64,000 bases of DNA from positions 78,902 through 142,901 of the forward strand of contig CAVWKA010000020.1 in the NCBI GenBank assembly GCA_963755515.1, written 5' to 3'. The notes under the pieces were generated by a model that was not told where the DNA came from, made no database searches, and saw only the letters and a list, made by a program, of their open reading frames with translations. The number at the start of each line of letters is the position of its first letter. Position 1 is the first letter of the stretch. Positions 4,955 through 34,519 of the stretch are shown here, in pieces. Source of the stretch: an uncultured Verrucomicrobiae bacterium (GTDB lineage Bacteria > Verrucomicrobiota > Verrucomicrobiia > Limisphaerales > UBA11358). Made by a program: the position numbers and the translations under genes.

Positions 4955-4973
4955 CAATATCATTAACTGACCC

Positions 4974-5197
4974 GAATGGCCCTTAGATAAGGCGTAAATC
5001 AATGAAATACAGCCAGTTACAATCGCACTTAAAACTCGCTCCTTCATGTGCCGCCTGCGGCCGGTCGGACTGAGCGCGGAGCAAGAAAGCGTTTGATTTT
5101 GCTGGCTTTGCCGACATCCATTGCGGTAAAAGCTTTCCGATTCCCGCGGTTTTCAATGAAAACCGCCATTTTGTTGAGCCTTATCTAAGGGCCATTC
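4974..5197. mobile_element. 224-bp MITE related to the IS4 elements at 30.7-34.5 kb
   Basis: Perfect 20-bp TIR GAATGGCCCTTAGATAAGGC; 11-bp TSD TTAACTGACCC (4963-4973, 5198-5208). Confidence 0.9.
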
Positions 5198-5212
5198 TTA
5201 ACTGACCCCTTT

Positions 5213-7213
5213 ATGACCTATAATCTGGCCGGCCAATTGCAGGTCGAATCGTTCGCCGGGCGGGCCGTTAAACGGCCTTTCTGTGACCAACGGCTACGAC
5301 CAATTCATGCGCCGGACGAATCTCGTGGCGTTGGATTCCAGCAGCCCTTTGCTCCAGCAATCCTTCGGCTACGACAACGCTTCCCGCTTGCAAATGGTGA
5401 GCGATGGCAACAACAATTCGGCGACATATTCTTATGTTGCCAATTCGCCATTGGTGAGCCAGATTGTGTTCAAACAAAGCGGATTGACGCGGATGACGAC
5501 GACAAAACAATGGGATTATCTGAACCGGCTGACGCAGATTTCCTCTGCGCCGAGTGCTGCGTACACTTCGCCGCTGACGTTCAATTACAATTACAACCCG
5601 GCAAACCAGCGCACAAAGGACACGCTGGCCGATGGTTCCTATTGGATTTATGCCTACGATTCCTTGGGCCAAGTGACCAATGGCTGCAAATATTTCTCCA
5701 CGGGCACGCCGGTTCCCGGCCAGCAATTTGATTACACGTTCGACACCATTGGCAACCGGACTCAGACCATGTCTGGTGGCGACACGAATGGAGCAAACCT
5801 TCGTGTGGCCAATTATTACGCGAATAACCTGAACCAAATCACAAATCGAGACGTTCCGGCTTATGCGGACATTATGGGCGCAAGCATTCTGACCAACACG
5901 GTGACGGTCAATGGTCAGACTGCATATCGCAACCAGGAGTATTTCCGGCAGCAGCTGCCGGCGAACAACAGTTCTTCCGCACTATGGACGAACATCATTG
6001 TGGCTGGCGGGTTGGCTGTGACGGGGAACGTGTATGTGGCGCGGGAGCCGGAGGTGTTCAAATACGACGCGGATGGGAACCTGACGAATGACGGGCGCTG
6101 GGCTACACATGGGATGGCGAGAATCGGCTGACGAAAATGACGGTCAACACAAACGTGGGGCCGCAATACACCCTGACGTTTGCGTATGATCCCAAAGGCC
6201 GGAGAATCCAGAAGGTGGTGGTTACGAACGGAGTGACGATCTACACGGACAATTTCCTTTATGATGGATGGAACCTGATCGCCGTTTTGAATTCTTCCTT
6301 TAGCCTTCAGAATTCGTTTCTGTGGGGCAATGATTTGAGCGGTTCGCCTCAGGGCGCCGGGGGAGTGGGCGGCCTTTTGGAGGTAAGCTATCACGGCAGC
6401 TCAACGACGACGAATTGTTTCCCTGTTTATGATGGCAACGGGAATGTCATGGCCCTGGTCAATGCGGCGGATGGAACACTCGCGGCCAATTACGATTTCG
6501 GCCCCTTCGGTGAACTCATCCGTGCCACTGGGCCGATGGCGAAGGTGAATCCGTTCCGTGAAGGCACCAAATTTTACGATGAGGAGACCGACATGGCTTA
6601 CTATGGGTATCGGTTCTACAACCCATCAACAGGGAGATGGTTGAGCCGGGACCCGATTGACGAGGCCAGCTTCCGCCAAAGCTACTTGAAGACAGTGAGT
6701 ACTGATGAGCGAAATTGGTTGGAAGTCCAGATGCCCGATGGCAACGAATTCGTTTTGGTTCAAAACGACCCTATTGACAATTATGACGTTAATGGACTGT
6801 TGGATCCCGGAACGTGCGTCAAAGGAACCGTGGTTGTGGTCGGAGGAGCAGCCGGAGTGGGGGCGGCAATTGCTGCTTTGCCTGTCGAGGCGATTGTTTT
6901 AGGGGTTGTGATAGTTGGCGAAGGCGCCGTCATCACATACGAAATTTGCCATAAACCGAAATGCGGGACGTGCAAGCCATGTATTCCACCCACTGGAACC
7001 AAAGCGATCAAGCGAACGGATTACCCGCCCAGCAAACCGCACGGCCCGATCCCGACACCTCATAGCCACATAGTGCAAGTAAACCAATCACCTTATCCAG
7101 CCTGCAAATGCTTCTGGAATGACGCTAATCCGGCTGTAGTGCCGGGTGTTCCTTCCTTGCCGCCTTTGTCTCAATTTCCTAATCCGCCCGGTGGCGGAGG
7201 ACCAGCTAATTAA
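5213..7213 (+). pseudogene. Orphan RHS core plus Cys/His/Pro-rich toxin domain; frameshifts near 5258 and 6103
   Basis: High similarity to 1-1250; WLSRDP and DVNGL motifs; ORFs 5283-6131 and 6137-7213 join across a 1-nt deletion. Confidence 0.85.
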
Positions 7214-7260
7214 CGCATTGTGCAGAGGCGCGCTTTCTGCTGCTTGCCCGTAATCCAATC

Positions 7261-7730
7261 ATGAACGACGAAGACATCGAAGTTGATACCGGAACTTGCC
7301 GATTGGAATGGCGGCACCGGAATCACTCTGGAGGCGTGGATAAGCGGCGTCGGCAGATTCGATCACGCACTCGGCTATTCTACTATCTTCTGGCCGAGTT
7401 TTATCGAGTACGAATCCTGCGTTTTTCGCGCGATTCCTGATCGTGAAGCATACCAACAATGGATGAAAAGCACGGACGGAGAGCGCACAAAAGTGGAGGC
7501 CAGCGATGAATCATGTGCATCTGATTGACTTGTTCACCGGTTCAGAGCACCAACCAAACAGGGCGTTGCTTTTGCGTTTAGGGCAGATCATGAAAGAGGC
7601 GTGGTCCTGCAAACTTGCACGGGACTTCCCAACCAGGCGTTTTGAAGTTCCTTTTTTCTCGGACGCTGAAAATCTGACCGATCTTGAGTTGACCTTCTAT
7701 CAGTATCCGGGTCCGAAAGCGGCGTCGTAA
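7261..7730 (+). CDS. Putative immunity protein (frameshifted near 7278 and 7503)
   Basis: Directly after RHS2; joined reading LIPELADWNGG..FWPSF..MNHVHLIDLF..KLARDFP looks like one protein. Confidence 0.55.
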
Positions 7731-7928
7731 ACCCTTGATTTTTGGTTTATTCCAGGCTTTTCCAGCCTTTTCCAGGTTAATCGCGTCATCCCTTGGCGAT
7801 GGGCGTGATGCCGATGAAGGCGACGTAGGGCTGTTTGCGCTCCAGTTCGGCGTAGCGTTTGGGCAGGATGCGGACGGCGGCGAGGTTGTTTTCCTGGAGC
7901 CGGTCGGCCAGGGGGCTGAGGCGCCAGC

Positions 7929-8610
7929 TGTTACGCACTTTTTTGACATCGTAAAAACGGCCAAATTGGGGTCGTAGGTTTTTTGGAACTTTTTCCACAC
8001 TGACATCGTAATTTGTGGCCGAATAGCCACGCTCTGATCGTAAGGTTGTGATCCGGCTGGTTCATTTTCGGATTTTCAGGCGTTCCGGGATTTTTTCACC
8101 ACACTGACATCGCAAGCGGCGGCTTCCGGCTGGATTCCCACACTGGCATCGTAAGGGCCGATTTTTGCCGTTGCAGCGGCTTTTGGCCGGACTGACATCG
8201 TAAGGTGACGACGCCAGCGGTGTTATCAAGTGCCGGTGATGTGGCGCATGGCATCATGGAAAGACAGGCCGAGGACCTGGACGTGGAAGTCAATGGCGTT
8301 GCCGGCCAGATTGCGTTGGGGCCAGCGCCAGTAACTGTCCTTGACGATGAGACCAGGATAGGCGGGCAAGCTAAAATTGCCCGCCTCCCGCTCCACGAGT
8401 TGGAGACCGCGCTTTTCGAGCAACGGAACCAGCGGGGCGAGCCGGGCGGCGCGGATTTGCTCACGCGACCACCGAGTGCGATTCGGGGAGGGGGTTGTCA
8501 TAATCTTTTCGCCAGTGGGGTTGGATGAGGACGTGGTTGACCTGCTTGAGATCCACGAAGCGGGTCTGGTCGCGGACGGCCTCGATGAGTGAACCCAGGC
8601 AGAGGTTGCG
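7929..8610 (-). mobile_element. Second, more deleted copy of the TGT-ended transposon end
   Basis: Matches 2492-3173, then jumps to the flank of the Y1 element. Confidence 0.85.
8226..8501 (-). CDS. Copy of the small primase-N-like transposon protein
   Basis: Identical to 2789-3064. Confidence 0.55.
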   Translation of the reverse strand: MTTPSPNRTRWSREQIRAARLAPLVPLLEKRGLQLVEREAGNFSLPAYPGLIVKDSYWRWPQRNLAGNAIDFHVQVLGLSFHDAMRHITGT

Positions 8611-8618
8611 TGAAGGTG

Positions 8619-9740
8619 AAGGGGTCAGTTAATGATATTGTATTATTTTATTGACGGATTGGGGAGGGGGCGGGATAGGATATGGGCGTGGCTCGGAAAC
8701 TGCGCATTCAATATCCCGGGGCGATTTATCACGCCTGTCCGGTCGTAGCCTCGGCGAAGCCGGATGATGAATCGCGGTGACCGGCGCGAGGCCATCTTTG
8801 CCGACGAGGCGGATCGGCGGAGGTTTTTGGAGACCCTCGCGGAGGCGTGCCAGAAGACCGGCTGGCAGGTGCATGCCTATTGCCTGATGAGCAACCACTT
8901 TCACTTGGTGGTGGAAACCCCCCAGCCCAATTTGGTGCTCGGAATGAAGTGGTTGCTGGGCACTTATACCAGCCGGTACAACCGGCGGCACAAGGAATTC
9001 GGACACTTGTTCAGCGGTCGGTACAAGGCCCTGGTGGTGGACGGGAGCGGGGACGGTTATCTCAAGACGGCCTGTGACTACGTGCATTTGAACCCGGTGC
9101 GGGCCAAATTGATGAAGGCGGATCAAGCTTTGGAGGCATTTGCCTGGAGCAGCTATCGGTGGTATCTGAGTGGGCCCTCGCGCCGACCGTCCTGGCTGCG
9201 GGTGGACCGGCTGCTGGGGGAGTGGGGCGTTCCCAAGGACAGCATTGCGGGGAGGCGTGAGTTCCAAGGACTGCATTGCGGGGAGGCGTGAGTTTGCGGA
9301 GCGGATGGAGTGGCGGCGGGGGGAGAACGCAGGGGAGGAATTCAAGCCGATGAAGCGGGGCTGGTGCCTGGGGCGGGAGGAGTTTCGGCGGGAGTTGCTG
9401 GAGCAGGTGAGCACGCCGGCCGGTCCGAGCCATTTCGGCGAGGCGATGCAGGAGGCGGCGCAGGCCCGGGCGGAGCGGATGGTGAAGGAGGGACTCCAGC
9501 GTTTAAGGTGGAGCGAGGCCGATTTGAGGGGGCGGCGCAAGGGCGAACCGGGGAAGGTGAAGTTGGCGCGCGCCTTGCGGGCAAACACGACGATGCCGCT
9601 GGCATGGATTGCGGAGCGGCTGAACATGGGTGGTCGCGGATATCTAGCCTGGCTACTGGGACAGGGCGCAAAGACCAAACGCCCGCAATCAAATGATCAA
9701 GCCATGTTGAAAATATGACAATATCATTAACTGACCCCTT
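8619..9740 (+). mobile_element. HUH/Y1 element copy 2 with perfect 23-bp TIRs
   Basis: TIRs at 8619-8641 and 9718-9740; near-identical to copy 1. Confidence 0.85.
8688..9718 (+). pseudogene. Y1 transposase broken by a 31-bp hairpin insertion and a 31-bp tandem duplication
   Basis: Duplication of CCAAGGACAGCATTGCGGGGAGGCGTGAGTT near 9233-9294 shifts the frame. Confidence 0.85.
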
Positions 9741-9918
9741 TATAACCGAAGCCCCTCGACGTGAGCGCGATGGCAAGAATGCGGACGTGTTGTGACGTAG
9801 ATTGATTCATATTTGTAGTGATTAAGCGGTTAATTTTGTGTAACGGAGGGCGATATCCGAAAGGGTTTGCTGTCTTTTCGGATCAGGTCTCCCATTTTTC
9901 CGGAAGGAAGGTATCTTT

Positions 9919-10035
9919 GCCCGTAAGATCATCGAACTCCTGGTCAAAACTATCGTCATCGGCAATGGCGAAATCACACTAAATCTCTGCTATTTGTCCA
10001 ATTTTGAACAAATGACAGATGGGCAACGCATCTTG
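9919..10035 (+). pseudogene. Possible C-terminal remnant of a large serine recombinase
   Basis: ARKIIELLVKTIVIGNGEITLNLCYLSNFEQMTDGQRIL resembles LSR C-termini; lies at the island border. Confidence 0.35.
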
Positions 10036-10068
10036 TCCGCGACGCCATCGCGTCCCGCGCGCTGCGCA

Positions 10069-10573
10069 TCATTGCAAAAAATCCCCTTGCAGTACCCGCA
10101 TCAAATCGTTGACCGCCAGCATCAATTCCCCGCGCCGTTCGGCTCCGGTTTCGTCGGTCAGCTCAATGGGACCGCTCATCGTTTGGGCGTAACGTTTGGT
10201 CAACGCCAGGATCCTCGTTCCGCTCCCCGGATAAGCGCAGCAACTCTTTCACCCTTCCAGCAAGGACCTTGGCGGCGGAAATCTTTCTTAACGCCGTATC
10301 CGCCCCCATTTCACGTGCCTCAACTTTCTTCAACAGCCCGCATTCGAATAAACGGCAGCGTTTGGGCCGGCCTTCGTAAATCTGGCACAGCGTCCCGTCA
10401 AAGCAGGCGCATGGCTGCGCAAAGGCAATCTTGGTTTTGCCCTTTTTGTGAAGGGACAATCCAAGCTTTTCAAGCCGCTTGGCATCGTCGCCCGCGCGTA
10501 ATTCAACGTCCGCGAACAGTGTGCTGTCGCAGCACAGGCCGCAGTTTGGACAGAGTTGGTCCACGCCGTTCAT
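10069..10573 (-). CDS. YkgJ-family cysteine-cluster (CxxCxxCC) protein, frameshift near 10213
   Basis: CPNCGLCC, QPCACF, CQIYEGRPKRCRLFEC; alternative frame gives a plausible end LQGDFLQ*. Confidence 0.75.
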
Positions 10574-13107
10574 CGCCACAAATGTTTCGGATATTTCCGC
10601 TGCAATTCGGATTTGATTTTGGGGTAATGTTCGCGCCAGAAATTCGCCAGGTCCTGCGTTACCTGGATCGGTTTCATTCCCGGTGTCAAAATATGCGCGG
10701 TAACCGGCACGCGCCCCATGGCGATGCGCGGCGTCTGGTTCACGTCGTAAAGCTCCTGAATCCGCAATGAGATGAAAGGCGATTTGCCCGTTTCGTAACT
10801 GACCTTCGGCGTGCGGCCATTCGGCAGCAACAGTCTTTCTGGCGCGTGCTTGTCCAACAATTCGCCTTGCAATTGGGATAACCAGGACATAACGAGTGGT
10901 TTGATCTCCCGTTCCTTGATATCTTTGTAACTTACCGCCCCATGACAAAGTTGTCCGATCACGTGAGCTTTGTCGTCATCGGTAAACGGCGGCAATTGCA
11001 ATTCAGGACAGTTCGTGCAGAGAAAATTCAGGCGGGCGAGCCATTGCTCAACCGAATGGTCCCAATTCGGCAGCGGCAAGTGGCCCGCCAGGATTTCTTC
11101 GGACAATATTCTCGCGGCGGCATCCGCCGGCGCCGGGTCAACGCGCTTCGCCGAAAGAGCCAGGCCCCGAAATTTCAAAAGTTCCGCGGCAACCACGCGC
11201 TTTTGCGTGGAATCAAATTGCACGCGCAATTCGGATTCCAAATCTTCCGGGAATAATTCGCGCAACCAGTCCTGCTCAATCGCGGTCGCCAATGAGAGAA
11301 TGGTGTTTACCTCCTTGTCCCGCCCTTCCACCTCGCGGATCTCGGCGGCAACCAATAAATCCTTTTGTTGCACGACGCTTTCGCGCGCCAGGACACCGCG
11401 CCGGTTGTGGACCAATTCGCACCGCAAAGTTCCCTGGTCCAGGCGGCGGGCGACGCGGTCGGAAAAACCAATAAGAACGCACTTCTGCAATGCCTCGTCT
11501 TTGACCTCGTGCGGCTGGGCGTCGAGGCCCTCGCGTTCGGCGATCCGAAGAAATTGTTCGAGCAACGGCCCCACCTGCCGCGCGGTGACGGCGTGGATGC
11601 CTAGTTTGCGGCAGGCGTCCATGCGAAATTGATTTTTGGCGGCGTAGCTCCATGCGCGCATCAGGATCCAAAAATCCGAGGAGGCTTTTTCGCCGAGCAA
11701 ATCTTCCCTGAGACCGGCGGTGGCCTTGTCCACGTTTCGCAACAGCAGGTCGCGCCCCTGGGTCAGGGCGGCGACCAGGGCGGCCTGATACACGCAACCG
11801 TATTCCCGGGCGGCCAGCAACATCCGCGAATACCGGGGATGGAGCGGAAACGCCAGCATCTTGCGGCCGACCGCGGCGATGGCGCCGTGCTTGTCGAGCG
11901 CGCCGAGGTCATGCAGCAATTCTTCCGCGTGGGTCAGCGAAATTTCATCCGGCTTTTCCAGCCACCGGAACTTCCGCAAATCGGCGATCCCGGCCGCTTT
12001 GAGCGTCAGCACCACCTCCGCCAAATCGAGCCGCCGGATTTCCGGCAGTTCCTGCGGCGGCCGATGCGAATGCTCCTCGCGCGACCATAATCGCATGCAA
12101 ATGCCCGGCGCCGTCCGTCCCGCGCGCCCGGTGCGCTGGTCGGCGGAGGACTGCGAAACGCGCTCGATCATCAGGGTGTTGATGCCGCGGTGGGCATCGT
12201 ATCGCGCGATCCGCGCCAGGCCGGAATCAATCACCAGCCGGACCCCGTCAATCGTCAGCGACGTTTCGGCGACATTTGTCGCAACCACGACCTTGCGCTG
12301 CTCATAACGCGCCACGGCGGCGTCTTGCAACTTCGGCTCCAGTTCACCGTGCAACGGCAGCAGGATAAATCCCTTGGATTCTGAGGTGTGGCGGATGGCC
12401 TCAATCGTCTGTGAAATCTCAAATCCGCCGGGCATGAATACCAGGGCATCCCCTTCACCGCCTGAATTCACATAGCTGGAAAATGCCTCGGCGGCTTGTT
12501 CCCAGATCGGACGCTTATCGTTGTAAGATGGCTGCGCCGTGTACTCGATTTCGACCGGGAATACGCGGCCCTCGGATGAAAGCGTGACGCATGGCTTTAA
12601 GTAATTTTCCAGTTCGCCGGCATTCAGCGTCGCGGACATGACGACGAGATGCAAGTCGGCGCGAAACTGCTCCTGCAGATCGAGCGCGCGGGCCAGGGTG
12701 ATATCGCCGTAGAGATGCCGTTCGTGAAATTCATCAAAAATCAAAACCGAAACGCCGCGCAGTTTAGGGTCTTCAATCATCTGGCGCAGCAGGACGCCTT
12801 CCGTAACGAACCGGATTTTTGTTTTGGCCGACGTGACATTTTCAAACCGGATTTGATAGCCGACTTCCTCGCCCAGCTTGACGCCAAGCTCCTGCGCGAC
12901 ACGCGCGGCCAGCAGGCGGGCCGCCAGGCGGCGCGGCTGCAGGATGGCCACCTGGCCCTCGCCCAGAAAACCGTGCCGCAACAGCATCTGCGGGACCTGC
13001 GTGGACTTTCCCGATCCGGTCGGCGCGGACAAAATCAATCGCCGGTCGGATTTCACGCGCGAAATGATTTCGCCTTCGATTTCGTAAATGGGCAGACGTT
13101 CAGCCAT
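10570..13107 (-). CDS. hrpB: ATP-dependent RNA helicase HrpB
   Basis: APTGSGKST, DEFHER, MSAT, ATNVAETSLTIDG, QRTGRAGR, C-terminal YPKHLW. Confidence 0.93.
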   Translation of the reverse strand: MAERLPIYEIEGEIISRVKSDRRLILSAPTGSGKSTQVPQMLLRHGFLGEGQVAILQPRRLAARLLAARVAQELGVKLGEEVGYQIRFENVTSAKTKIRFVTEGVLLRQMIEDPKLRGVSVLIFDEFHERHLYGDITLARALDLQEQFRADLHLVVMSATLNAGELENYLKPCVTLSSEGRVFPVEIEYTAQPSYNDKRPIWEQAAEAFSSYVNSGGEGDALVFMPGGFEISQTIEAIRHTSESKGFILLPLHGELEPKLQDAAVARYEQRKVVVATNVAETSLTIDGVRLVIDSGLARIARYDAHRGINTLMIERVSQSSADQRTGRAGRTAPGICMRLWSREEHSHRPPQELPEIRRLDLAEVVLTLKAAGIADLRKFRWLEKPDEISLTHAEELLHDLGALDKHGAIAAVGRKMLAFPLHPRYSRMLLAAREYGCVYQAALVAALTQGRDLLLRNVDKATAGLREDLLGEKASSDFWILMRAWSYAAKNQFRMDACRKLGIHAVTARQVGPLLEQFLRIAEREGLDAQPHEVKDEALQKCVLIGFSDRVARRLDQGTLRCELVHNRRGVLARESVVQQKDLLVAAEIREVEGRDKEVNTILSLATAIEQDWLRELFPEDLESELRVQFDSTQKRVVAAELLKFRGLALSAKRVDPAPADAAARILSEEILAGHLPLPNWDHSVEQWLARLNFLCTNCPELQLPPFTDDDKAHVIGQLCHGAVSYKDIKEREIKPLVMSWLSQLQGELLDKHAPERLLLPNGRTPKVSYETGKSPFISLRIQELYDVNQTPRIAMGRVPVTAHILTPGMKPIQVTQDLANFWREHYPKIKSELQRKYPKHLWR

Positions 13108-13206
13108 TGGAGCGGTTATCTTAGCAGCTAAAGAAGATCGGGAAAAATCAAAACGCTTTAATGCCGGCAATTCAATGTCATTTCGGGCGCTTCCGCTCTC
13201 GCTTTG

Positions 13207-13340
13207 CGTCTTGGAGTGCGGTGGCTGGCGGAGAACAGGGCTGACACCGCTTTCGAGATGCGACCCGCTGCCGCACTTCAGAGTTTGCCGAAATTTACAG
13301 GTGCCTTCCCCACTGCGCTTTCATTTCCGGCGCTTCACTC
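13207..13340. repeat. REP-like element (GCGTCTTGGAGTGCGG family)
   Basis: Same motif at ~23503-23546 and inverted at ~57272-57317. Confidence 0.6.
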
Positions 13341-13343
13341 CTC

Positions 13344-13664: not shown

Positions 13665-13711
13665 GAAGGGAATTTAATCCGCAATTCGTTTCAGGCAAGA
13701 GGCAAAATCCA

Positions 13712-14137: not shown

Positions 14138-14169
14138 GGCCGGTATAATAGTTCAACCGGTTTTAAATG

Positions 14170-15642: not shown

Positions 15643-15747
15643 AATTTATTTCTATTGATAGTTGGCATGGTATTGGCACCACATTTGGATAGACGGGAAT
15701 TCACGGAAAATACTTCAAAAAAAAATTGAAAAGCGCATTTTTAATGA

Positions 15748-21517: not shown

Positions 21518-21526
21518 ACGGCGATC

Positions 21527-22468: not shown

Positions 22469-22515
22469 GAGACAGGGAGAAGTTGACGCGAGCGTTTGTT
22501 TGCTTGTTGCAAAAA

Positions 22516-25508: not shown

Positions 25509-26170
25509 CGCTTGGTCGCGCCCGCCGGCCGCGATTTCATCGCCGCCAGTGAAAAATCGGCTATGTGCTTCGCCAGCCGCTCAATGCCGGCAACGTCCTG
25601 CGGCACTTGCTTGGGAAACAGCCGCGAAACCACGGGGCGGCAATGATGGAAAAAAACACACTGGCTCACAACGCTGAAACCATAACACCAAACCCGCTCG
25701 TCGTTCATCGGGCAGTCGAGAATCTCCGCGATGATTTTCCAGAGCTGCGTGGCCATCGGGCGGATGCGTTCCTCCACCAGCGAATCCAGCGCGCCCGTCG
25801 GCTCGATCATCTCGCGCGAAATCAGCTTCCCATGCCAGGACGTCGGCCCCTTGTCAAATATCCGGAGCAGGAAGGAGTGAATAAACGCGCGCAATTTTTG
25901 CTCCGCCGGCGCGTCTTCCGCCAGCCCCTGCAGCGGCGGATGCTTCTCCAGCGACTTTCCGTGAGCGTAACGCAGCGCTTCCAGGTACAGCGTTTCCTTG
26001 TCGCCAAAATGGTAATTCACCGCGGCTACATTCGCCCCGGCGCGGCCGCAGATTTCCCGTATGGTCGCAGCGCGAAATCCCGTCTCGGCAAACACTTCCC
26101 CCGCCGCCTGCAATAACTGCTGGCGGGTTTCATCCAGGCTTTTCGCCGGGGCGCGGGCGCGCGGCTTCAT
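25505..26170 (-). CDS. TetR-family regulator (CerR/DUF1956-like C-terminus)
   Basis: FAETGFRAATIREIC..AGANVAAVNYHFGDKE. Confidence 0.88.
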   Translation of the reverse strand: MKPRARAPAKSLDETRQQLLQAAGEVFAETGFRAATIREICGRAGANVAAVNYHFGDKETLYLEALRYAHGKSLEKHPPLQGLAEDAPAEQKLRAFIHSFLLRIFDKGPTSWHGKLISREMIEPTGALDSLVEERIRPMATQLWKIIAEILDCPMNDERVWCYGFSVVSQCVFFHHCRPVVSRLFPKQVPQDVAGIERLAKHIADFSLAAMKSRPAGATKR

Positions 26171-26171
26171 T

Positions 26172-26200
26172 TCAAACAAATAATTAAAACATTTGTTTGA
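26172..26200. promoter_or_regulatory. Probable TetR operator
   Basis: Perfect inverted repeat TCAAACAAAT-N9-ATTTGTTTGA between divergent tetR and efflux operon. Confidence 0.7.
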
Positions 26201-26265
26201 CACGTCAATGAAAATCTTTATTTTTCGTTGAGTCGAAAGTCGCCCCTGAAAGCTTGAGTAATGCA

Positions 26266-27120
26266 ATGAAGAAAAGATTCATTTTGTTCCTGGCGCTCCT
26301 GGCCGTGGCCGCCGGCGCGCTCGCCTACGCCTTCACCCGGCCGACTCGTGAAATTGTCCTCACCGGCACCGTCACCACGGATACCGTCATCGTCGCGCCG
26401 GAAATCCAGGGTCGTTTGCAAAAGTTGCTTGTCGAGGAAGGCGACATCGTGACCAACGGCGAAATGCTCGCTCAAATCCTCCCCGCGGAATGGCAGGCCG
26501 ACGCGGAATTTTATGTCCACAGCGAACAGCAAACCACCGCCAACCTCGCCCAGGCCCAGGCCGATTTGGAGAACGCCCGCCTCAATTTCGCCCGTATCGC
26601 CGGCCTTTATTCAAACAACGTCGAATCCGCCCAGGATTATGATGCCGCCCGGACGACCTACGATTCCGCCAAAGCCCATGTGGATGCCGTCAAAAGGCAA
26701 ATCCAGGCCGCCTCGGCCCAAAAACAAAAGGCCCAGATCGTCCTGGGCTATACGCAAATTTTCGCGCCCACCAATGGCATCATTGACAAACGCGTCGCCT
26801 TGGAGGGCGAAATGGTCAATCCCGGCCAGCCCATCGTCACCATTATCAATCCCGATGACCTCTGGGTCCGCGCCGATGTCGAGGAAACCTACATTGACCG
26901 CATCCGTCTCGGCGACCAATTTCAAGTCCGCCTCCCCTCCGGCGCCACCCGTGAAGGCACGGTCTTTTATCGCAGCGTGGACGCCGATTACGCCACCCAG
27001 CGCGACGTCAGCCGCACCAAACGCGACATCAAGACCTTTGAAATCCGCCTCCGCTGCGATAATTCTGACCGCGCCCTGGCCGTGGGCATGACGGCTTATG
27101 TTACCCTGCCGCTGAAATGA
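26266..27120 (+). CDS. HlyD-family membrane fusion protein
   Basis: N-terminal anchor, lipoyl-like halves, coiled coil. Confidence 0.88.
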   Translation: MKKRFILFLALLAVAAGALAYAFTRPTREIVLTGTVTTDTVIVAPEIQGRLQKLLVEEGDIVTNGEMLAQILPAEWQADAEFYVHSEQQTTANLAQAQADLENARLNFARIAGLYSNNVESAQDYDAARTTYDSAKAHVDAVKRQIQAASAQKQKAQIVLGYTQIFAPTNGIIDKRVALEGEMVNPGQPIVTIINPDDLWVRADVEETYIDRIRLGDQFQVRLPSGATREGTVFYRSVDADYATQRDVSRTKRDIKTFEIRLRCDNSDRALAVGMTAYVTLPLK

Positions 27121-28106
27121 ATGCCGACGTTGAAGTCGAAAATCTCACCAAGCGCTTCGGCGATTTCATCGCCGTGGACGCCTTGAATTTTTCCGTCGAA
27201 CATGGCGAGATTTTCGGGTTGCTCGGCCCCAACGGCGCGGGAAAATCCACCCTCATCCGCATGTTGACCACCCTCGTGCCGCCCACTTCCGGCGCCGCCC
27301 GCGTCAATCACTTCGACATCGTCCGCCAGCCCAACAACGTCCGGCAATCCATTGGCGTCATCCCCCAGGCCATGACCAGCGACCTCGAATTGAGCGCCGA
27401 GGAAAATCTCATCATCTTCGCCAAACTTTACGGAATCCCCCACGAGCAGCGCAAACGCGCCATCCCGCAACTCCTCAAGGAAGTGGATTTGACCCAATGG
27501 GCGGACAAACCCGTTAAAATGTTTTCCGGCGGTATGAGGCGCCGCATGGAAATCGCGCGCGGCCTCGTCCATGAACCCAAAATCTTCTTCCTCGACGAAC
27601 CCACCACCGGCCTGGACCCCGTCTCCCGCGTCTCCGTCTGGGAAATGCTCGCCCGCCTGAAACGCGAACGCGATTTGACCATCATCGTCACCACCCACTA
27701 CATGGATGAAGCCGATAAATTGTGCGACCGCATCGCCATCATTGACCAGGGCAGGCTCGCCGCCCTCGATTCCCCGCTGAAATTAAAGGCCTCCATTCCC
27801 GGAAAAAACATCCTCGAAGCGAGCTTCTCCGGCCCGCCGGCCAACTGGGCCGAAACCTTGCGGAGGCTCCCTGAAGTGGCCGAAGTGAAAAACCAGGAGA
27901 ATGTCTTCCGCATCTCCACCAATAACGGCCCCCGCACCACGGTCGAATTGCTTGAAAAGGCCCGCGCCGCAAACATCGCCGTCACCTCGCTCTCGGTCCA
28001 AAGCACCACCCTCGACGACGTGTTTGCCCATTACACCGGCCATCAACTCCGCGATGCCCTCCAGGCGCCGTCAGCCGCCGAAAGCCCCTTTATCATGCGA
28101 CGTTGA
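27117..28106 (+). CDS. ABC transporter ATP-binding protein (DrrA-like)
   Basis: GPNGAGKS, FSGGM, LDEPT, TTHYM. Confidence 0.93.
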   Translation: MNADVEVENLTKRFGDFIAVDALNFSVEHGEIFGLLGPNGAGKSTLIRMLTTLVPPTSGAARVNHFDIVRQPNNVRQSIGVIPQAMTSDLELSAEENLIIFAKLYGIPHEQRKRAIPQLLKEVDLTQWADKPVKMFSGGMRRRMEIARGLVHEPKIFFLDEPTTGLDPVSRVSVWEMLARLKRERDLTIIVTTHYMDEADKLCDRIAIIDQGRLAALDSPLKLKASIPGKNILEASFSGPPANWAETLRRLPEVAEVKNQENVFRISTNNGPRTTVELLEKARAANIAVTSLSVQSTTLDDVFAHYTGHQLRDALQAPSAAESPFIMRR

Positions 28107-28110
28107 TTTT

Positions 28111-29223
28111 ATGCACCGGGTCTGGGCCATCATTGAACGCGACCTGCGCCGCTTCCGGCGCAGCCCGGCGCTTATGTTCGTTTCCATGATCATGCCGCTC
28201 GTGCAATTGGTCGTGCTCGGCTACGCCTTCGGTGGAAAAATAAAAAACCTCCAGGTCGGCGTCGTGGATGAGGACCACGGCGTTCCCGCCATCAAACTGC
28301 ACGAAATGTTCCAGGCCGTCGCCGCCAACGCCAAAACCTTCACCCCCATCTATTATGACGACCGCGCCCTAGCCATCCACGATTTGCGGATCGGAAAAAT
28401 CAACGGCGTGCTCGACATTCCGCCTCAATTTTCACGCAAGGTCCTCGCGGGCATCAACCCCAGCATCGCCCTGATGGAGGACAATTCGGACCAATTCTCC
28501 GCCTCCGCCCTCGAAGGAGTATTGGACAGCCTCGTGCCCTCATATAATTCGTCGCCCGTCCCGCCACGCACCACCAGTGACGTGACTTTGGACGTGGTCG
28601 AAATCTACCCGTATGTGCCTTACATCCAGTTTCTCCTGCCGGGCGTCATCGTGCTGGCGGTTTTCATTTCCGCGATGATTGGCGGCGGCATCATCTTCAT
28701 TGATGACAAGGCGCGCGGACTGCACGAGGGCTATCTCGTGACGCCAATACGCAAATTTGAATTGATTCTCGGATTCACGCTGGCCGGCGCGGTCAAGGCC
28801 ATCATTAGCGGAACGGTTTTAATCACCCTCGGCTCCGTCATTGCCGGAATTCCCGACCCTCTGGATCCACTGCGTATGTTAAGGATGTTTGTTCTGGTGG
28901 TTGCCACCGCCCTGGCGCTCATCAGCATGATGTTCCTCATCATGGTCCGCGTCAGCGATCCGCTGGTGCCCCGCGCGATATTCGGAATGCTCAACACCGT
29001 CCTCTATTTCCCCAGCGGCGCGGTTTACCCGACGCAATCATTTCCCGATTGGATGAAAGCGATTGCCATTGTTGACCCCTTCACCTACGCCGTGCATGGC
29101 TTCAAGCAACTCGTCTTGAAAAACACCGGCCTCATGGCCATCAGCGGCGATTTACTCTTCCTTTTCTGCTTCACCGCGCTGGCCATGGGTATCGCCACCC
29201 TCCTGTTCCGCCGGACGTTGTAG
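28111..29223 (+). CDS. ABC-2 transporter permease
   Basis: TM segments with periplasmic loop, YFPSGAVYP, DPFTYAV. Confidence 0.88.
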   Translation: MHRVWAIIERDLRRFRRSPALMFVSMIMPLVQLVVLGYAFGGKIKNLQVGVVDEDHGVPAIKLHEMFQAVAANAKTFTPIYYDDRALAIHDLRIGKINGVLDIPPQFSRKVLAGINPSIALMEDNSDQFSASALEGVLDSLVPSYNSSPVPPRTTSDVTLDVVEIYPYVPYIQFLLPGVIVLAVFISAMIGGGIIFIDDKARGLHEGYLVTPIRKFELILGFTLAGAVKAIISGTVLITLGSVIAGIPDPLDPLRMLRMFVLVVATALALISMMFLIMVRVSDPLVPRAIFGMLNTVLYFPSGAVYPTQSFPDWMKAIAIVDPFTYAVHGFKQLVLKNTGLMAISGDLLFLFCFTALAMGIATLLFRRTL

Positions 29224-29253
29224 CACCCGCCTCCCGCGGGTTGAGCCGGACGC

Positions 29254-30700
29254 CGGCTGGTTTGGAGTTCCGCGTTTACGCGGCCCGGCCTGAAAAGAGG
29301 CGGCAAGTTCACGGCCCCGATGCGCCCCCTTGCGCCATCCTATCCATTCTTCAGCCCTTAGCCTTTATAGCGTTTCAAGAAAAACTGTAGCCGCGTCCTT
29401 TCCTTCTGGTTCGCTTTGACTCCAACAAAACCTCCGGCGCAGCCGCCGAATAAAACCCTGAAAGGGTGACCGATATTAGCCCAGGGCAAGCGAGTCTGCG
29501 AGCGCCGCCCTGGGTCTCCGGCCACAGTTTTTATCGATACGGTATAATGCCCGGCCAAGTTCACAAAGTCCAATGGCATCCGTGTCGGCATTGAGGGGGA
29601 AGCGCTCGTTACCCGAATAAACGACGAAGCGTTTGTCCGGCTTGAGATCGGCACACGTCTCCGAATGCGAGCATGATTTTGTCGGCTGGTTTGGAGTTCC
29701 GCGTTTACGCGGCCCGGCCTGAAAAGAGGCGGCAAGTTCACGGCCCCGATGCGCCTTCCTATCCAGCCTTCATCCTTCAGCCTTTAGCCTTTGCCGCTAA
29801 TGCCCGGCCAAGTTCACAAAGTCCAATGGCATCTGTGTCGGCATTGAAGGGGAAGCGCTCGTTACCCGAATAAACCACGAAGCGTTTCTCCGGCTTGAGA
29901 TCGGCACACGTCTCCGAATGCGAGCATGATTTTGTCGGCTGGTTTGGAGTTCCGCGTTTACGCGGCCCGGCCTGAAAAGAGGCGGCAAGTTCACGGCCCC
30001 GATGCGCCTTCCTATCCAGCCTTCATCCTTCAGCCTTTAGCCTTTGCCGCTAATGCCCGGCCAAGTTCACAAAGTCCAATGGCATCCGTGTCGGCATTGA
30101 GGGGGAAGCGCTCGTTACCCGAATAAACGACGAAGCGTTTGTCCGGCTTGAGATCGGCACACGTCTCCGAATGCGAGCATGATTTTGTCGGCTGGTTTGG
30201 AGTTCCGCGTTTACGCGGCCCGGCCTGAAAAGAGGCGGCAAGTTCACGGCCCCGATGCGCCTTCCTATCCAGCCTTCATCCTTCAGCCTTTAGCCTTTGC
30301 CGCTAATGCCCGGCCAAGTTCACAAAGTCCAATGGCATCCGTGTCGGCATTGAGGGGGAAGCGCTCATTACCCGAATAAACGACGAAGCGTTTGTCCGGC
30401 TTGAGATCGGCACACGTCTCCGAATGCGAGCATGATTTTGTCGGCTGGTTTGGAGTTCCGCGTTTACGCGGCCCGGCCTGAAAAGAGGCGGCAAGTTCAC
30501 GGCCCCGATGCGCCCCCTTGCGCCATCCTATCCATTCTTCAGCCCTTAGCCTTTATAGCGTTTCAAGAAAAACTGTAGCCGCGTCCTTTCCTTCTGGTTC
30601 GCTTTGACTCCAACAAAACCTCCGGCGCAGCCGCCGAATAAAACCCTGAAAGGGTGACCGATATTAGCCCAGGGCAAGCGAGTCTGCGAGCGCCGCCCTG
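29254..30700. repeat. 253-bp tandem array inside a 259-bp direct repeat
   Basis: Units at 29545, 29798, 30051, 30304; outer repeat 29254-29512 and 30442-30700. Confidence 0.92.
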
Positions 30701-30725
30701 AGCGGGGGTCAGGCCTGAATGGCGC

Positions 30726-31073
30726 TTAGATAATGCGTAAGTCTCTTGTCTTTAACGGCTTGAGGCGTTGCGTGTCAGGCGTTGTTGCGAATAATATCTG
30801 GCGAGATAGAACCTCCATGTCGTGGATGGTCTTACGCAAGCGACGCCCGTTTTGTACGGCCTGTTTCATTTCTTCAAATTGGTCCGCCGACAGGGCCACG
30901 GTTACGGTCTTCCGTCCCACTTTGCGCGTCCACTGGTAACCCGTGCGTGGGGGGGTGAGGGTGGCGCGATCCAAGACCGAGCCATCGCTGATATAACCGA
31001 GGCGCGCCAGCGTCCGCCGGAGTGCGGCGTACTGCTGGAGCCATTGGGGCGGAACTGCCGGAACAGGCTTCAT
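30726..31073 (-). CDS. IS accessory protein, DUF6788-like
   Basis: GSV..YQWTRKVGRKTVTVALS pattern; identical in both IS copies. Confidence 0.65.
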   Translation of the reverse strand: MKPVPAVPPQWLQQYAALRRTLARLGYISDGSVLDRATLTPPRTGYQWTRKVGRKTVTVALSADQFEEMKQAVQNGRRLRKTIHDMEVLSRQILFATTPDTQRLKPLKTRDLRII

Positions 31074-31088
31074 GACGGCATTTTAACA

Positions 31089-31125
31089 TTGACGTCAAGC
31101 CATTGACAAGTATATATACTTGTCA
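31089..31125. promoter_or_regulatory. Divergent control region with palindromes
   Basis: TTGACGTCAA (31089-31098) and perfect 22-bp TGACAAGTATATATACTTGTCA (31104-31125); also in copy 2. Confidence 0.6.
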
Positions 31126-32560
31126 TGCCAGCACTCCATTGTTTCCCGCCTGGCGCGCCCGCTTCGCCAGCCTCGGCCAGCGCGTCCGGCAAATCCGCCA
31201 GCACAGCCTGCTCCAGTTGGACCTGCTGTTTGCTCCGCTCCTGCCGGCCGGACTCCTGTCCCAAGCCGACGAGGGGCCCAACAGCCGCGAACGCGTTTAT
31301 ACCGTGCGCCGCACGTTCTTTGGCTTCTTGTTTCAGGTGCTCAAGCCCGATTGCGCCTGCCGGGAGGTCGTCCGCCAAATCCTGGCCTTGTGCGCCCTGC
31401 ATACCGAGCGACTGCTCCAGCCCGGGCACCAGTGCCTATTGCCAGGCGCGCCAGCGGTTGCCCTGGGATATCCTGCCGCGCTTGCGTTGCGCCTTGGCCG
31501 CGCGCGCCGACCGTGCTGGCCAACGGTGGAAGGGGTTTTGCGTCAAAGTGGTGGACGGCACCGGCATCAGCCTGCCCGATACCAAGAAGAATCAGCGGGC
31601 TTATCCCCAGTCCGCAGGACAGAAGCCTGGCTGCGGTTTTCCACTGCTCAAGCTGGTCGGCGTGTTCAGCCTGGCCAGCGGGGCCTTGCTGGACTATGCC
31701 AAAGGCAACAAACACCGGCACGAACTGGGCTTGCTCCAACGGCTGCTCGACACGTTCAAGCCGGGGGATCTCGTGCTGGCCGATCGGGGCTTCAGCACCT
31801 ACGCGCTGATGGCGCTGCTCTGGTTGCGCAACGTCCATAGCCTGTTGCGTTTGCACCACGCCCGGCGGCGGGACTTCCGCCAAGGTAAACGCCTGGGCAA
31901 GAACGACCGCCTGCTGGTTTGGAGCAAACCGGATCACTGGCAGAAACCCCGCTTTATTCCGCAGTGCCTTTGGCGGCGTCTGCCGCAAAAACTCTCGGTT
32001 CGGATGGTCCGGTTCACATTGGCCGTTCCTGGCTACCGCACCCGATCGGTCACCCTCATCACTACTTTGGTCGATCCGGTGCTCTATCCGGCGGCAGAAC
32101 TGGCCCAGCTTTACGCGCGGCGCTGGCGCATTGAGTTGTGGTTTCGTGATATTAAAACTTCCATGGGCATGGAAACCCTGCGCTGCCAAAGCCCCAAGAT
32201 GGTCCACAAGGAACTGGAGATGTTCTTCATTGCCTACAACGCCATCCGTTGCCTCATGGCCGAAGCCGCCGAGACTTATGACGTTGTTATCGAGCGGCTC
32301 AGTTTCAAAGGCACGGTCGATTCGGTGCGGCAGTTTAGCGCGGCCATCGCACAGGCGCGCTCCGGCAAGAAAAGGAAAAAACTGATTGGCGCGGCTCTTG
32401 GAACTGATTGCCGCGACCGAGTCCCTGAGCGGCCTGGCCGCCGCGAACCTCGCGCGGTCAAGCGCCGCCCTAAACCTTTCCAAAAGTTAAATCGCCCGCG
32501 CCACCTGATGAAGGAAATGCTGCACCGCAGCAAATATCGCAAAAATGGACCGCTATCTAA
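31125..32560 (+). pseudogene. IS4-family DDE transposase with several frameshifts
   Basis: VVDGT, LADRGF, YARRWRIELWFRDIK. Confidence 0.85.
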
Positions 32561-32569
32561 GCGCCATTC

Positions 32570-32632
32570 GGGTCAACCCATAGTTTGGCTAGGAGGGGTC
32601 AACCCATAGCTTGGCTAGGAGGGGTCAACCCA
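32570..32632. repeat. 26-bp tandem repeat GGGGTCAACCCATAGYTTGGCTAGGA
   Basis: Two units plus a third split by IS copy 2 (continues at 34490-34510). Confidence 0.85.
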
Positions 32633-32641
32633 GAATGGCGC

Positions 32642-32989
32642 TTAGATAATGCGTAAGTCTCTTGTCTTTAACGGCTTGAGGCGTTGCGTGTCAGGCGTTG
32701 TTGCGAATAATATCTGGCGAGATAGAACCTCCATGTCGTGGATGGTCTTACGCAAGCGACGCCCGTTTTGTACGGCCTGTTTCATTTCTTCAAATTGGTC
32801 CGCCGACAGGGCCACGGTTACGGTCTTCCGTCCCACTTTGCGCGTCCACTGGTAACCCGTGCGTGGGGGGGTGAGGGTGGCGCGATCCAAGACCGAGCCA
32901 TCGCTGATATAACCGAGGCGCGCCAGCGTCCGCCGGAGTGCGGCGTACTGCTGGAGCCATTGGGGCGGAACTGCCGGAACAGGCTTCAT
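32642..32989 (-). CDS. IS accessory protein, DUF6788-like
   Basis: Identical to 30726-31073. Confidence 0.65.
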   Translation of the reverse strand: MKPVPAVPPQWLQQYAALRRTLARLGYISDGSVLDRATLTPPRTGYQWTRKVGRKTVTVALSADQFEEMKQAVQNGRRLRKTIHDMEVLSRQILFATTPDTQRLKPLKTRDLRII

Positions 32990-33040
32990 GACGGCATTTT
33001 AACATTGACGTCAAGCCATTGACAAGTATATATACTTGTC

Positions 33041-34480
33041 ATGCCTAGCACTCCATTGTTTCCCGCCTGGCGCGCCCGCTTCGCCAACCTCGGCCGGCAC
33101 GCCCAACAACTCCGGCAGCACAGCCTCCTGCAACTGGACTTGCTGCTGGCTCCGCTCTTGCCGGCCGGACTGCTCTCCCAGACCGACGAGGGGCCCAACA
33201 GCCGCGAACGCGTCTATACGGTGCGTCGCACCCTTTTCGGGTTCTTGTTTCAGGTCCTCAAACCCGCCTGCGCCTGTCGGGAAATCGTCTGTCAAATCCT
33301 GGCTTTGCGCGCCCTGGACTGCCCAGCGGATGCTTCCAGGCCGGGCACCAGTGCCTATTGCCAAGCGCGGCTGCGGCTGCCAATGGAGCTCTTCTCGCGT
33401 TTGCGTCGCGCCCTGGCCGCGCGCGCCGAACGTGGCGCCGAACTTTGGAAGGAGTTCTGCGTCAAAGTCATTGATGGCACCGGCGTGAGTATGCCCGATA
33501 CCGAAAAGAATCAGCGCGCCTATCCCCAGCCCGGAGGCCAGAAGCCGGGGTGCGGATTTCCCCTCCTGAAGCTGGTCGGCGTGTTCAGTTTGGCCACCGG
33601 AGCCTTGCTCGACTATGCCAAAGGCAATAAGCACCAACACGAACTGGGCCTGCTCCAGCGATTGCTCGACACCTTCCGGCCAGGGGATCTCGTCCTGGCC
33701 GATCGCGGCTTCAGCACCTACGCGCTGATGGCGCTGCTCTGGCAACGCCGGGTCCACAGCCTCTTCCGCCTGCATCACGCCCGCCCCGGGGATTTCCGCA
33801 AAGGCAAGCGCTTGGGCAAAGACGACCGCCTGCTGGTCTGGCCCAAGCCCGACAACTGGCAGAAACCCCGCTTTATTCCCAAGCGCCTCTGGCAATGCCT
33901 GCCGCAAACCCTGGCCGTCCGGATGGTCCGATTCACCTTGGAGATCCCCGGCTACCGGACCCAATCGGTGACCCTGATCACCACGTTGCTGGACCCGAAA
34001 CTCTACCCGGCCGCAGAACTGGCCCAACTGTATGCGCGTCGCTGGCGCATTGAACTGTGGTTTCGTGATATCAAGACCTCGATGGGGATGGAAACTTTAC
34101 GCTGCCAAAGTCCAGAGATGATTCATAAGGAACTGGAAATGTTCTTCATTGCCTACAATTTAATCCGTTGTCTCATGGCCGACGCGGCCCAAACTTACAA
34201 TGTCGAGATCCAGCGCCTCAGCTTCAAAGGCACCGTCGATGCCCTGCGGCAGTTTAGTGCCGCGATCGCACAGGCGCGGTCCCGCAAGAAAAAGAACCAG
34301 CTGATTGGCAGGCTCTTGGAACTGATCGCCAGCGATCAAGTCCCGGAGCGACCTGGCCGCCGAGAGCCACGCGCCGTCAAGCGCCGTCCCAAGCCTTACC
34401 AGAAGTTAAATCGTCCTCGCCACCTAATGAAAGAAATGCAGCACCGCAGCAAGTATCGCAAAAATCGTGACCTTATCTAA
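33041..34480 (+). CDS. IS4-family DDE transposase
   Basis: VIDGT, LADRGF, Y(2)R(3)E(6)K signature YARRWRIELWFRDIK, RPGRREPRAVKRR. Confidence 0.93.
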   Translation: MPSTPLFPAWRARFANLGRHAQQLRQHSLLQLDLLLAPLLPAGLLSQTDEGPNSRERVYTVRRTLFGFLFQVLKPACACREIVCQILALRALDCPADASRPGTSAYCQARLRLPMELFSRLRRALAARAERGAELWKEFCVKVIDGTGVSMPDTEKNQRAYPQPGGQKPGCGFPLLKLVGVFSLATGALLDYAKGNKHQHELGLLQRLLDTFRPGDLVLADRGFSTYALMALLWQRRVHSLFRLHHARPGDFRKGKRLGKDDRLLVWPKPDNWQKPRFIPKRLWQCLPQTLAVRMVRFTLEIPGYRTQSVTLITTLLDPKLYPAAELAQLYARRWRIELWFRDIKTSMGMETLRCQSPEMIHKELEMFFIAYNLIRCLMADAAQTYNVEIQRLSFKGTVDALRQFSAAIAQARSRKKKNQLIGRLLELIASDQVPERPGRREPRAVKRRPKPYQKLNRPRHLMKEMQHRSKYRKNRDLI

Positions 34481-34519
34481 GCGCCATTCGGGTCAACCCA
34501 TAGCTTGGCTCGTTTTTCT

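Follow-up and report, generated by a model that had tools for sequence, protein, structure and literature searches.

The insertion sequence (IS) IS231A reportedly inserts into the terminal inverted repeats (TIRs) of the transposon Tn4430, with the target consensus GGG(N)5CCC. A comparable nesting is described here for a stretch of 64,000 nucleotides from an uncultured Verrucomicrobiae bacterium (contig CAVWKA010000020.1, positions 78,902 to 142,901), which is called the window in the following. It contains two copies of an IS4-family IS and one MITE (a miniature transposable element bounded by inverted repeats) with the same ends, all of which are flanked by GGGTCA in a fixed register, and this motif corresponds to the outer tip of the TIRs of TIRtrons, i.e., of elements encoding a Y1 (HUH) transposase. 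Judged from these sequences, a mobile element of one kind habitually lodges in the termini of another, unrelated kind.

IS231A had been named as a precedent in an earlier, sequence-only reading of the window, and the comparison is apt. In both cases an IS4-family DDE element with duplications of about 11 bp uses a short, G/C-flanked palindromic target and has a hot spot in the ends of another transposon, and the target logo obtained here is close to the consensus that is said to apply to IS231A. The likeness is functional only: IS231A belongs to another subgroup, has CAT ends and carries no DUF6788 gene, and its host element is a Tn3-family transposon, whereas a Y1 element is used here. For the IS231 elements in general, target specificity and direct repeats of 10–12 bp are given by De Palmenaer, Siguier and Mahillon (2008; PMC2266710).

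A second comparison is offered by the IS elements that seek repetitive extragenic palindromic (REP) sequences, namely ISRm22 (IS4 family, Sinorhizobium meliloti), ISPpu9, ISPpu10, ISPa11 and ISPsy8 (Tobes and Pareja, 2006; PMC1525189). According to that paper, all copies share one fixed position within a Y1-linked repeat family, as is the case here, and hybrid or imperfect repeats of ISRm22 are put down to recombination between copies, as for IS1 and IS3 below. The REP-seeking elements have the symmetry axis of the REP hairpin as target, and direct repeats of 6 bp are reported for them. In the window, by comparison, an autonomous TIRYT element is hit at the outer tip of its long TIR; the duplications measure 11 bp, and the strong half-site is asymmetric.

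The terms TIRtron and TIRYT were introduced for Y1 genes located within long TIRs, which have the motif GGGGWSAS in common and lie at a near-constant distance from the gene; the TIRs also occur as single, paired and clustered copies, including TIR dimers (Di Nocera et al., 2013; PMC3733652). TIRtrons were assigned to subclass 2.1, with a C-terminal helix-turn-helix (HTH)-like domain and the class-2 Y-motif signature Y---NP (Quentin et al., 2018; PMC6006769). The elements of the window share with them the Y1 gene and the fixed-distance TIRs with GGGGWSAS, and have a putative HTH-like C-terminal tail. The available text of the two papers speaks of low copy numbers and makes no mention of IS insertions in the TIRs; in contrast, 12 full-length copies are present in the genome studied here and IS4-type elements repeatedly occupy the TIRs.

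It is thus already known that IS4-family elements can nest in other repeats in a site-specific manner. What is new, in that the searched literature contains no description of it, is the pairing with the termini of TIRtrons, the fact that this pairing recurs across genomes, and the conserved DUF6788 gene; an element with such a target may be listed in PMC2266710, namely in its Figure 3 or additional files. The finding leaves the knowledge of how such elements move unchanged. Its interest is that two unrelated systems, a DDE element of the IS4 family and a Y1/HUH TIRtron, stand in a stable, sequence-defined relationship, which recurs across a bacterial order and, with motif variants, in other phyla.

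The IS4-family elements and their flanks

The TIR GAATGGCSCTTAGATAA was found six times in the window, allowing up to two mismatches, vs. no match in 100 shuffled sequences. The six matches form three pairs, which delimit MITE-A (4974–5197), IS copy 1 (IS1, 30717–32569) and IS copy 2 (IS2, 32633–34489), all on the plus strand. MITE and IS have in common the TIR and the adjoining GCGTAA[A/G]TC. MITE-A (224 bp, TIR GAATGGCCCTTAGATAA) lies between two copies of TTAACTGACCC (reverse complement GGGTCAGTTAA) at 4963–4973 and 5198–5208, a perfect 11-bp target site duplication (TSD) that was read directly at the junctions. A perfect TSD was likewise found for IS2 (1857 bp), with GGGTCAACCCA at both 32622–32632 and 34490–34500. 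For IS1 (1853 bp), flanked by GGGTCAGGCCT on the left (30706–30716) and GGGTCAACCCA on the right (32570–32580), the flanks form no TSD pair. In total, 6/6 of the 11-bp flanks in the window read GGGTCA-N5 at the junctions. By itself the motif shows no enrichment in the window (39 sites, 29.5 expected), so that the signal consists in its fixed register beside the TIR. These flanks, the listed flanks of IS1 and the shared ends had all been given by the sequence-only reading and could be reproduced.

Both open reading frames (ORFs) of IS2 are intact, i.e., the accessory ORF with a Pfam match to DUF6788 (32642–32989, minus strand) and the transposase ORF of 479 aa (33041–34480, plus strand). IS1 contains a DUF6788 ORF of 115 aa (30726–31073, minus strand), which ends within the left TIR, and a transposase ORF of 494 aa (31125–32609, plus strand), which reads on through the right TIR into the spacer between the two copies. 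A third copy, IS3, is located on another contig of the genome (C32:1977–3830) and carries two frameshifts. Of the three, IS2 is the one that is probably active. IS1 has a mosaic structure: the first 400 bp match IS2 and IS3 at 100% identity and the remainder at 77–89%, and its left flank is the missing TSD partner of the right flank of IS3. For these reasons the flanks seem to have been swapped by recombination between copies, and hybrid flanks like those of IS1 would generally have this origin.

The transposases of the two window copies match PF01609 (DDE_Tnp_1; E 3e-28 and 8.5e-29) and NF033592 (175.6 and 198.4 bits, the latter for IS2, at a cutoff of 115), in agreement with the proposed IS4 family, and the Y(2)R(3)E(6)K motif as defined in PMC2266710 could be read in the translation of the IS2 transposase (YARRWRIELWFRDIK). 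For the IS4 subgroup, ends of the form -AATR--------WTW---- and direct repeats of 10–13 bp are given in Table 1 of De Palmenaer, Siguier and Mahillon (2008), who state a usual size of 1400–1650 bp with one ORF and remark on the "spectacular apparent insertion specificity" of this subgroup. With AATG at positions 2–5 and ATA at positions 14–16, the IS end GAATGGCGCTTAGATAA carries the signature of the subgroup, and the 11-bp duplication lies within its range. The size and the number of ORFs deviate, as the window IS is 1853–1857 bp long and contains a second conserved ORF; this extra ORF accounts for the approximately 200 bp above the size range. Three relatives without the DUF6788 ORF (L115, L117 and L125) have a length of 1517–1540 bp.

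TIRtron tips as insertion sites

The window contains two TIRtron copies on the plus strand, at 3888–5211 (left TIR 3888–3918) and 8619–9740, with 96.8% identity to each other. Both have 31-bp TIRs starting with AAGGGGTCAGTTAATGATATTGT (also given as AAGGGGTCAG), and the tip GGGGTCAG fits the published GGGGWSAS. Copy 1 has an intact TIRYT gene (4031–4954, plus strand, 307 aa) and a right TIR broken by MITE-A. In contrast, the gene of copy 2 is split by a 31-bp tandem duplication (9233–9294) and its TIRs are unbroken, so that its unoccupied ends could be used as an empty-site comparator. Its right TIR AAAATATGACAATATCATTAACTGACCCCTT demonstrates that MITE-A interrupts a Y1 element within its right TIR, as had been proposed.

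The TIRYT protein matches PF01797 (E 8e-12), and the HUH motif HFH, the class-2 Y-motif YVHLNP and a putative C-terminal HTH-like tail could be read in its translation. A Pfam search with the 307-aa protein returned no HTH match (of the type Bac_DnaA_C, HTH_23 or HTH_28); the tail is conserved in the remnant beside IS2. The score against NF047646 is 45.2 bits at a cutoff of 80, and the flanks are long TIRs, not REPs. By these features the protein falls outside the REP-associated tyrosine transposases (RAYTs) as strictly defined. The Y1 elements of the window are TIRtrons.

The stretch that adjoins IS2 on the right (34490–34783, minus strand) is assigned to the right end of a second TIRtron family, of which a remnant with the terminal GGGTCAACCCATAGCTTGGCT and a C-terminal TIRYT piece (ORF 34520–34735, minus strand) is left. 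The ORF shows 41% identity over 41 aa to the C-terminus of the window TIRYT and 60% over 60 aa (E 3e-16) to the TIRYT of locus L163, and the terminal GGGTCAACCCATAG follows its stop codon at the usual distance of about 30 nt. The right TSD of IS2 accordingly lies at the end of a Y1 remnant, which had been suggested from the sequence.

The genome of origin (G000; 5.29 Mb, 41 contigs) was searched for further copies. In addition to IS3, it contains a second, identical MITE-A (C41:484379–484602), a partial MITE-A on contig C15 and four copies of MITE-C, a related MITE of 196 bp (two on C8, one each on C15 and C32). For these ten copies, GGGTCA is present in register in 17 of 18 flanks; the 18th, GCGTCA, is one base off its TSD partner. 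MITE-A on C41 occupies the same position in the right TIR of another TIRtron in the opposite orientation, which identifies it as an independent insertion and bears out the statement that both orientations occur. Seven of the nine distinct target sites read AGGGGTCA, which is found 108 times in the genome, compared with 2,339 sites for GGGTCA (binomial P = 1.5e-8). Three of the nine lie within the TIR of family 1, which accounts for 37 sites (P = 3e-4), and Y1 coding sequence or remnants thereof are present on the expected inner side of five (the two MITE-A sites, IS2, IS3 and C8:257414).

Two other readings have to be weighed against these data. GGGTCA could be part of the mobile unit, either as longer ends or as a carried flank, or the MITEs could be moved by TIRYT instead of the DDE enzyme. 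This would agree with the fact that GGGTCA adjoins every end and that TIRYT elements and MITEs co-occur. It is nevertheless very improbable: the N5 following GGGTCA varies from site to site and is duplicated on both sides of a copy, unoccupied TIRtron ends already hold a single GGGTCAGTTAA, and the combination of TIRs and 11-bp duplications marks IS4-type DDE enzymes, not Y1 enzymes (PMC2266710). As N5 is variable and empty sites exist, GGGTCA was rejected as an element end.

The second reading is survivorship, with near-random insertion and persistence of copies where they are harmless, e.g., within selfish elements. For the host, an insertion in a TIRtron end should be neutral, and the window is rich in mobile DNA. 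Survivorship leaves the single-base register unexplained, and all 18 genome flanks show the motif or a one-base variant; furthermore, no insertion was found elsewhere within the 1.1-kb TIRtrons when the copies of the genome were compared. The counts for shifted registers given below also speak against it, and there is hardly any probability left for this explanation.

The link to TIRtrons could be followed outside the genome. TIRYT homologues (E ≤ 1e-10) were found in 67 of 121 genomes sampled from the order. In 28 of 29 foreign TIRYT loci, the sequence (A)AAG|GGGTC[AG]G is present 96–155 bp (mostly 96–118 bp) upstream of the gene, and in about 22 of the 29 an inverted copy of the motif follows 27–122 bp downstream. 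Exact inverted repeats of at least 12 nt were detected in 17 of 30 TIRYT loci. Fifteen of these 17 repeats start at or just outside the motif; those of L156 and L158 start directly after a one-base variant. In line with the cited descriptions of TIRtrons, this establishes that the Y1 (TIRYT) inverted repeats have the motif as their conserved outer tip. The occupancy of TIRtron ends is low, as L160, with an IS4-type end in the same register, is the sole occupied TIRtron among the 29 foreign loci (1/29). For family 1 in the genome itself, 3/14 right ends, 0/17 left ends and 0/6 solo TIRs are occupied.

Family-1 TIRtrons of the genome read ..TG|AAGGGGTCAG at the left ends and ..TA|AAGGGGTCAG at the right ends, and no clear target duplication of the TIRtron itself could be defined from them. 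On contig C15 (131845–131900), a 53-bp piece of a family-1 TIRtron right end abuts position 166 of MITE-A, and nesting may also run in the reverse direction, with a TIRtron piece placed against MITE-A. At locus L189 (G145:C33, approximately 1250–2260), a short Y1 gene is located between two degenerate IS4-type ends, each abutting TTTCGGGGACAGGCGC, in inverted arrangement. It could represent a TIRtron in which the MITEs of both TIRs have decayed, or else a cassette with IS4-type ends and a Y1 gene inside.

For the search in relatives, the genome and 40 related genomes were scanned for the TIR with at most one mismatch. It is present in 13 of these 41 genomes, and many of its flanks read AAAGGGGTCA-N5. 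At locus L005, a 92-bp MITE lies within the right TIR of a 1.0-kb TIRtron. GTDB genomes were scanned with a slightly widened TIR pattern (at least 119 loci, 137 distinct ends) and metagenomes with the exact TIR pattern of the sequence-only reading (at least 120 loci, 132 distinct ends). All counts for these two samples are counts among the matches listed.

In the GTDB sample, GGGTCA is located at positions -11 to -6 of 21 ends and TGACCC at -6 to -1 of 7, and 67 of the 137 ends match at least five of the six positions. GGGWSAS occurs in register in 30 ends and 0–1 times at each of eight shifted registers. The metagenomes gave 42 exact ends out of 132 (25 + 17), 76 ends with at least five of six positions and again 0–1 hits at each of the eight shifted registers. 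Across both samples, 28–42 ends in register thus face 0–1 shifted ones. Where both ends of an insertion were in hand (n = 60), the 11-bp flanks agree at 11/11 positions in 19 cases and at 10/11 in 9. The fixed GGGTCA register, which had been claimed from the window, therefore extends to the rest of the genome, the relatives, the GTDB genomes and the metagenomes.

How many of these targets are TIRtron ends depends on the measure used. TIRYT coding sequence within 2.5 kb was found for 2/67 GGGTCA-like ends (with 30 TIRYT queries) vs. 0/70 others in the GTDB genomes and for 7/76 vs. 0/56 in the metagenomes; many of the contigs are short. Pooled, Y1 coding is near 9/143 GGGTCA-like ends compared with 0/126 others (Fisher P = 0.004), i.e., significantly enriched and low as a share. 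With the query P0001 alone, 1/67 GGGTCA-like GTDB ends has a Y1 gene within this distance. In view of these 1/67 and 2/67 GTDB ends, the assumption that the insertions are always inside a full Y1 element was rejected.

For a comparison by sequence, a position matrix was built from 47 TIRYT termini that were found independently of the IS4 elements. Scoring was restricted to 14 nt of the TIR interior outside the duplication, with the 95th percentile of control flanks as threshold. Scores above it were obtained for 17/28 inner-side flanks of the metagenomes and 6/24 flanks of the broader GTDB sample. The AAG prefix is present in 26/48 outer-side (type-1) flanks and in 1/56 others. An inverted partner of the target TIR within 4 kb was found at 8 distinct sites (9/43 flank rows, L005 and L018 overlapping), with many loci being too short. 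Some target sites are ends of short palindromic TIR pairs, 53–213 bp apart, which match the TIR dimers of Di Nocera et al. (PMC3733652). Outside its own genome, the TIRtron link thus appears weak by gene content and much stronger by sequence, and among the metagenome matches listed TIRtron-type ends would make up about half of the GGGTCA-type sites.

Recognition of the target

The logo of all genomic and metagenomic targets listed reads AAAG|GGGTCAG-T-CCY, with the cut just 5' of GGGTCA. For the metagenomes, A reaches 62%, 72% and 79% at positions -15, -14 and -13, and G 70% at -12; in the second half-site, G is found in 83% at -5 and C in 68% and 70% at -3 and -2. With both outside samples taken together, the second half-site shows G at -5 in 65–83% and C at -3 and -2 in 55–70%. 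It forms a degenerate palindrome, GGGTC-A-G(N)CCC, whose centre falls within the 11-bp TSD. Palindromic targets of this kind are produced by a transposase dimer contacting both target arms, and for this reason an intrinsic specificity of the transposase, like that of IS231 and ISRm22, is favoured over guidance by a further factor.

The identical 17-nt TIR is also associated with at least two further target classes, each within its own repeat family. A third target class, TATCG-S-CGATA, was found in metagenome loci among the matches listed. In the genome itself, MITE ends with the same or nearly the same TIR (C19:27360, C24:93808, C26:68268 and C41:299510–299705) are located in CCC-N4/5-GGG sites, one TSD of this class reading CCCTTTCAA[A/G]G. 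These sites lie within another repeat family, GCGCAGCCGCCGAATAAAACCC..GGG, of which an unoccupied example is present in the window at approximately 30640–30660. Since the identical TIR occurs with other targets, it does not set the target, which would be determined by the enzyme variant.

Taken as a whole, the data are quite likely explained by an IS4-subgroup IS and its MITEs whose transposase chooses a palindromic target and for which TIRtron tips are the main landing pads. The 1.85-kb IS and the MITE derivatives would move by the ordinary DDE route of the IS4 family, with target cuts staggered by 11 bp. The transposase itself would select the degenerate palindrome GGGTC-A-G(N)CCY, best after AAAG, and always cut directly 5' of GGGTCA. 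This target is the conserved outer tip of the TIRtron TIRs (GGGGWSAS), and the TIR is split upon insertion. TIRtron ends and gene-less TIR derivatives would serve as the main landing pads because the motif is their tip and because TIRtrons are multicopy here and common in the order. The tips would be used as the commonest, harmless carriers of the best site, and the insertions are presumably tolerated because they land in selfish DNA. The part of this explanation that concerns target choice, i.e., that it is intrinsic to the transposase, is itself likely from the logo.

The sequence-only reading had described a hyperparasite specialised on HUH termini, possibly guided by its accessory protein or by the bound Y1 protein. 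The specialisation of the IS4 lineage can be regarded as real, acting through sequence and not exclusive. Guidance is probably wrong. It would imply that DUF6788, a TIR-bound TIRYT or a TIR hairpin or cruciform leads the IS4 transpososome to its site and that the element is an obligate hyperparasite. One argument for such a role of DUF6788 is its conservation. The protein of 115 aa is encoded on the strand opposite to the transposase, with its stop codon within the left TIR, and the gene is found beside the transposase in 10 relatives with 41–64% amino-acid identity. It is a real, conserved gene. The enrichment of Y1 coding near GGGTCA-like ends given above and the conservation past the TSD, i.e., the AAAG prefix and the TIR interior, also fit guidance.

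On the other side, the palindrome centred in the TSD is typical of direct dimer recognition and most of the target sites listed have no TIRYT gene within 2.5 kb. Genome G025, with an assembly that is 90% complete, has MITEs in such sites and no TIRYT that could be found with the window query. L074 carries the DUF6788 gene, yet has a CCC-N5-GGG target. The AlphaFold2 model of DUF6788 (predicted local distance difference test, pLDDT, 84.8) consists of a helix, three strands and a long helix, and structure comparisons with it revealed no recognisable DNA-binding fold. Foldseek against the PDB gave nothing at E ≤ 0.001, with weak rows similar to a double-stranded RNA-binding domain (dsRBD) and to SRP14, and VIA-align wide gave helical-hairpin rows only (Z ≤ 6.9). 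In the protein atlas, DUF6788 falls into clusters of hypothetical proteins only, and it is not mentioned in the searched literature. Considering these points together with the other target classes, guided targeting appears unlikely.

Guidance would also bear on the insertions with inverted flanks, GGGTCA-N5 [element] N5-TGACCC, which make up 7 of the 60 paired insertions and could arise if the TIRs were synapsed when attacked. They comprise L081, L137, L059, L080, L013, L063 and C15:132992–133187 of the genome itself, with the IS or MITE located between two outer 16-nt TIRtron stubs, and look as if the element stood in place of the entire interior of a TIRtron or TIR dimer. In the strictest form of this idea, the element is an obligate TIRtron hyperparasite, DUF6788 or the end-bound TIRYT delivers the transpososome to synapsed or hairpin termini, and the inverted-flank copies are the product of one-step interior replacement. 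If this were true, one transposon family would disarm another and take over its sites across several phyla; it is regarded as quite improbable. Insertion in both TIRs followed by recombination would be the simplest explanation of the inverted flanks.

These copies nevertheless weigh against palindrome recognition by the transposase alone, as a simple insertion at one site does not yield them, and several other observations point the same way. Conservation of the AAAG prefix and the TIR interior extends beyond the TSD and could equally fit the recognition of a TIRtron-specific feature such as a hairpin or bound TIRYT. Within the clade DUF6788 is a conserved gene, and no exact GGGTCA targets are seen in the relatives that lack it (n = 3). 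In the genome itself, right TIRtron ends alone are occupied (3/14 vs. 0/17 left ends, Fisher P = 0.08). Moreover, the rows of the outside samples are not phylogenetically independent.

Three different palindromic targets are found among sister lineages whose ends are the same, which makes these elements a compact test case for the reading of an 11-bp target by the IS4 family. DUF6788 would provide a conserved accessory gene that is easy to test. The mobility of TIRtrons has, to our knowledge, never been shown. The IS4-type insertions may serve as a natural marker of functional TIRtron termini, with the tip GGGGTCAG as a candidate cleavage or recognition site.

Tandem duplications and neighbouring genes

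The spacer between IS1 and IS2 (32570–32632, 63 bp) is made up of the 26-bp unit GGGTCAACCCATAGYTTGGCTAGGAG, present twice, and of GGGTCAACCCA behind it; IS1 has its right flank here and IS2 its left TSD. The unit comprises 5 nt outside, the 11-mer and 10 nt inside and is present about 2.4 times in tandem. Short duplications were also observed at the TIRtron tips of L158, L170, L176, L178, L007, C29:71926 and C41:406816, where the terminal AAAGGGGTCA block is repeated in tandem with a period of mostly 11 nt, at times 12 nt, and with N5 mostly unlike between the copies. IS excision footprints were considered as the origin of the 26-bp units and of the 11–12-nt tip duplications and rejected for most of them, as N5 differs. 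In L007, a MITE is flanked by three identical 11-mers, which is compatible with such a footprint.

Directly upstream of IS1, the segment 30442–30700 is an exact 259-bp duplicate of 29254–29512, and four tandem repeats of a 253-bp unit occupy 29545–30603. In the left part of the window, the two TIRtrons are interleaved with genes for RHS-repeat proteins (58–1698, 5283–6131, 6137–7213 and also 3024–3845), modules of which are repeated at 80–95% identity, and an AAA-ATPase gene adjoins. This part looks like a region of rearranging RHS cassettes.

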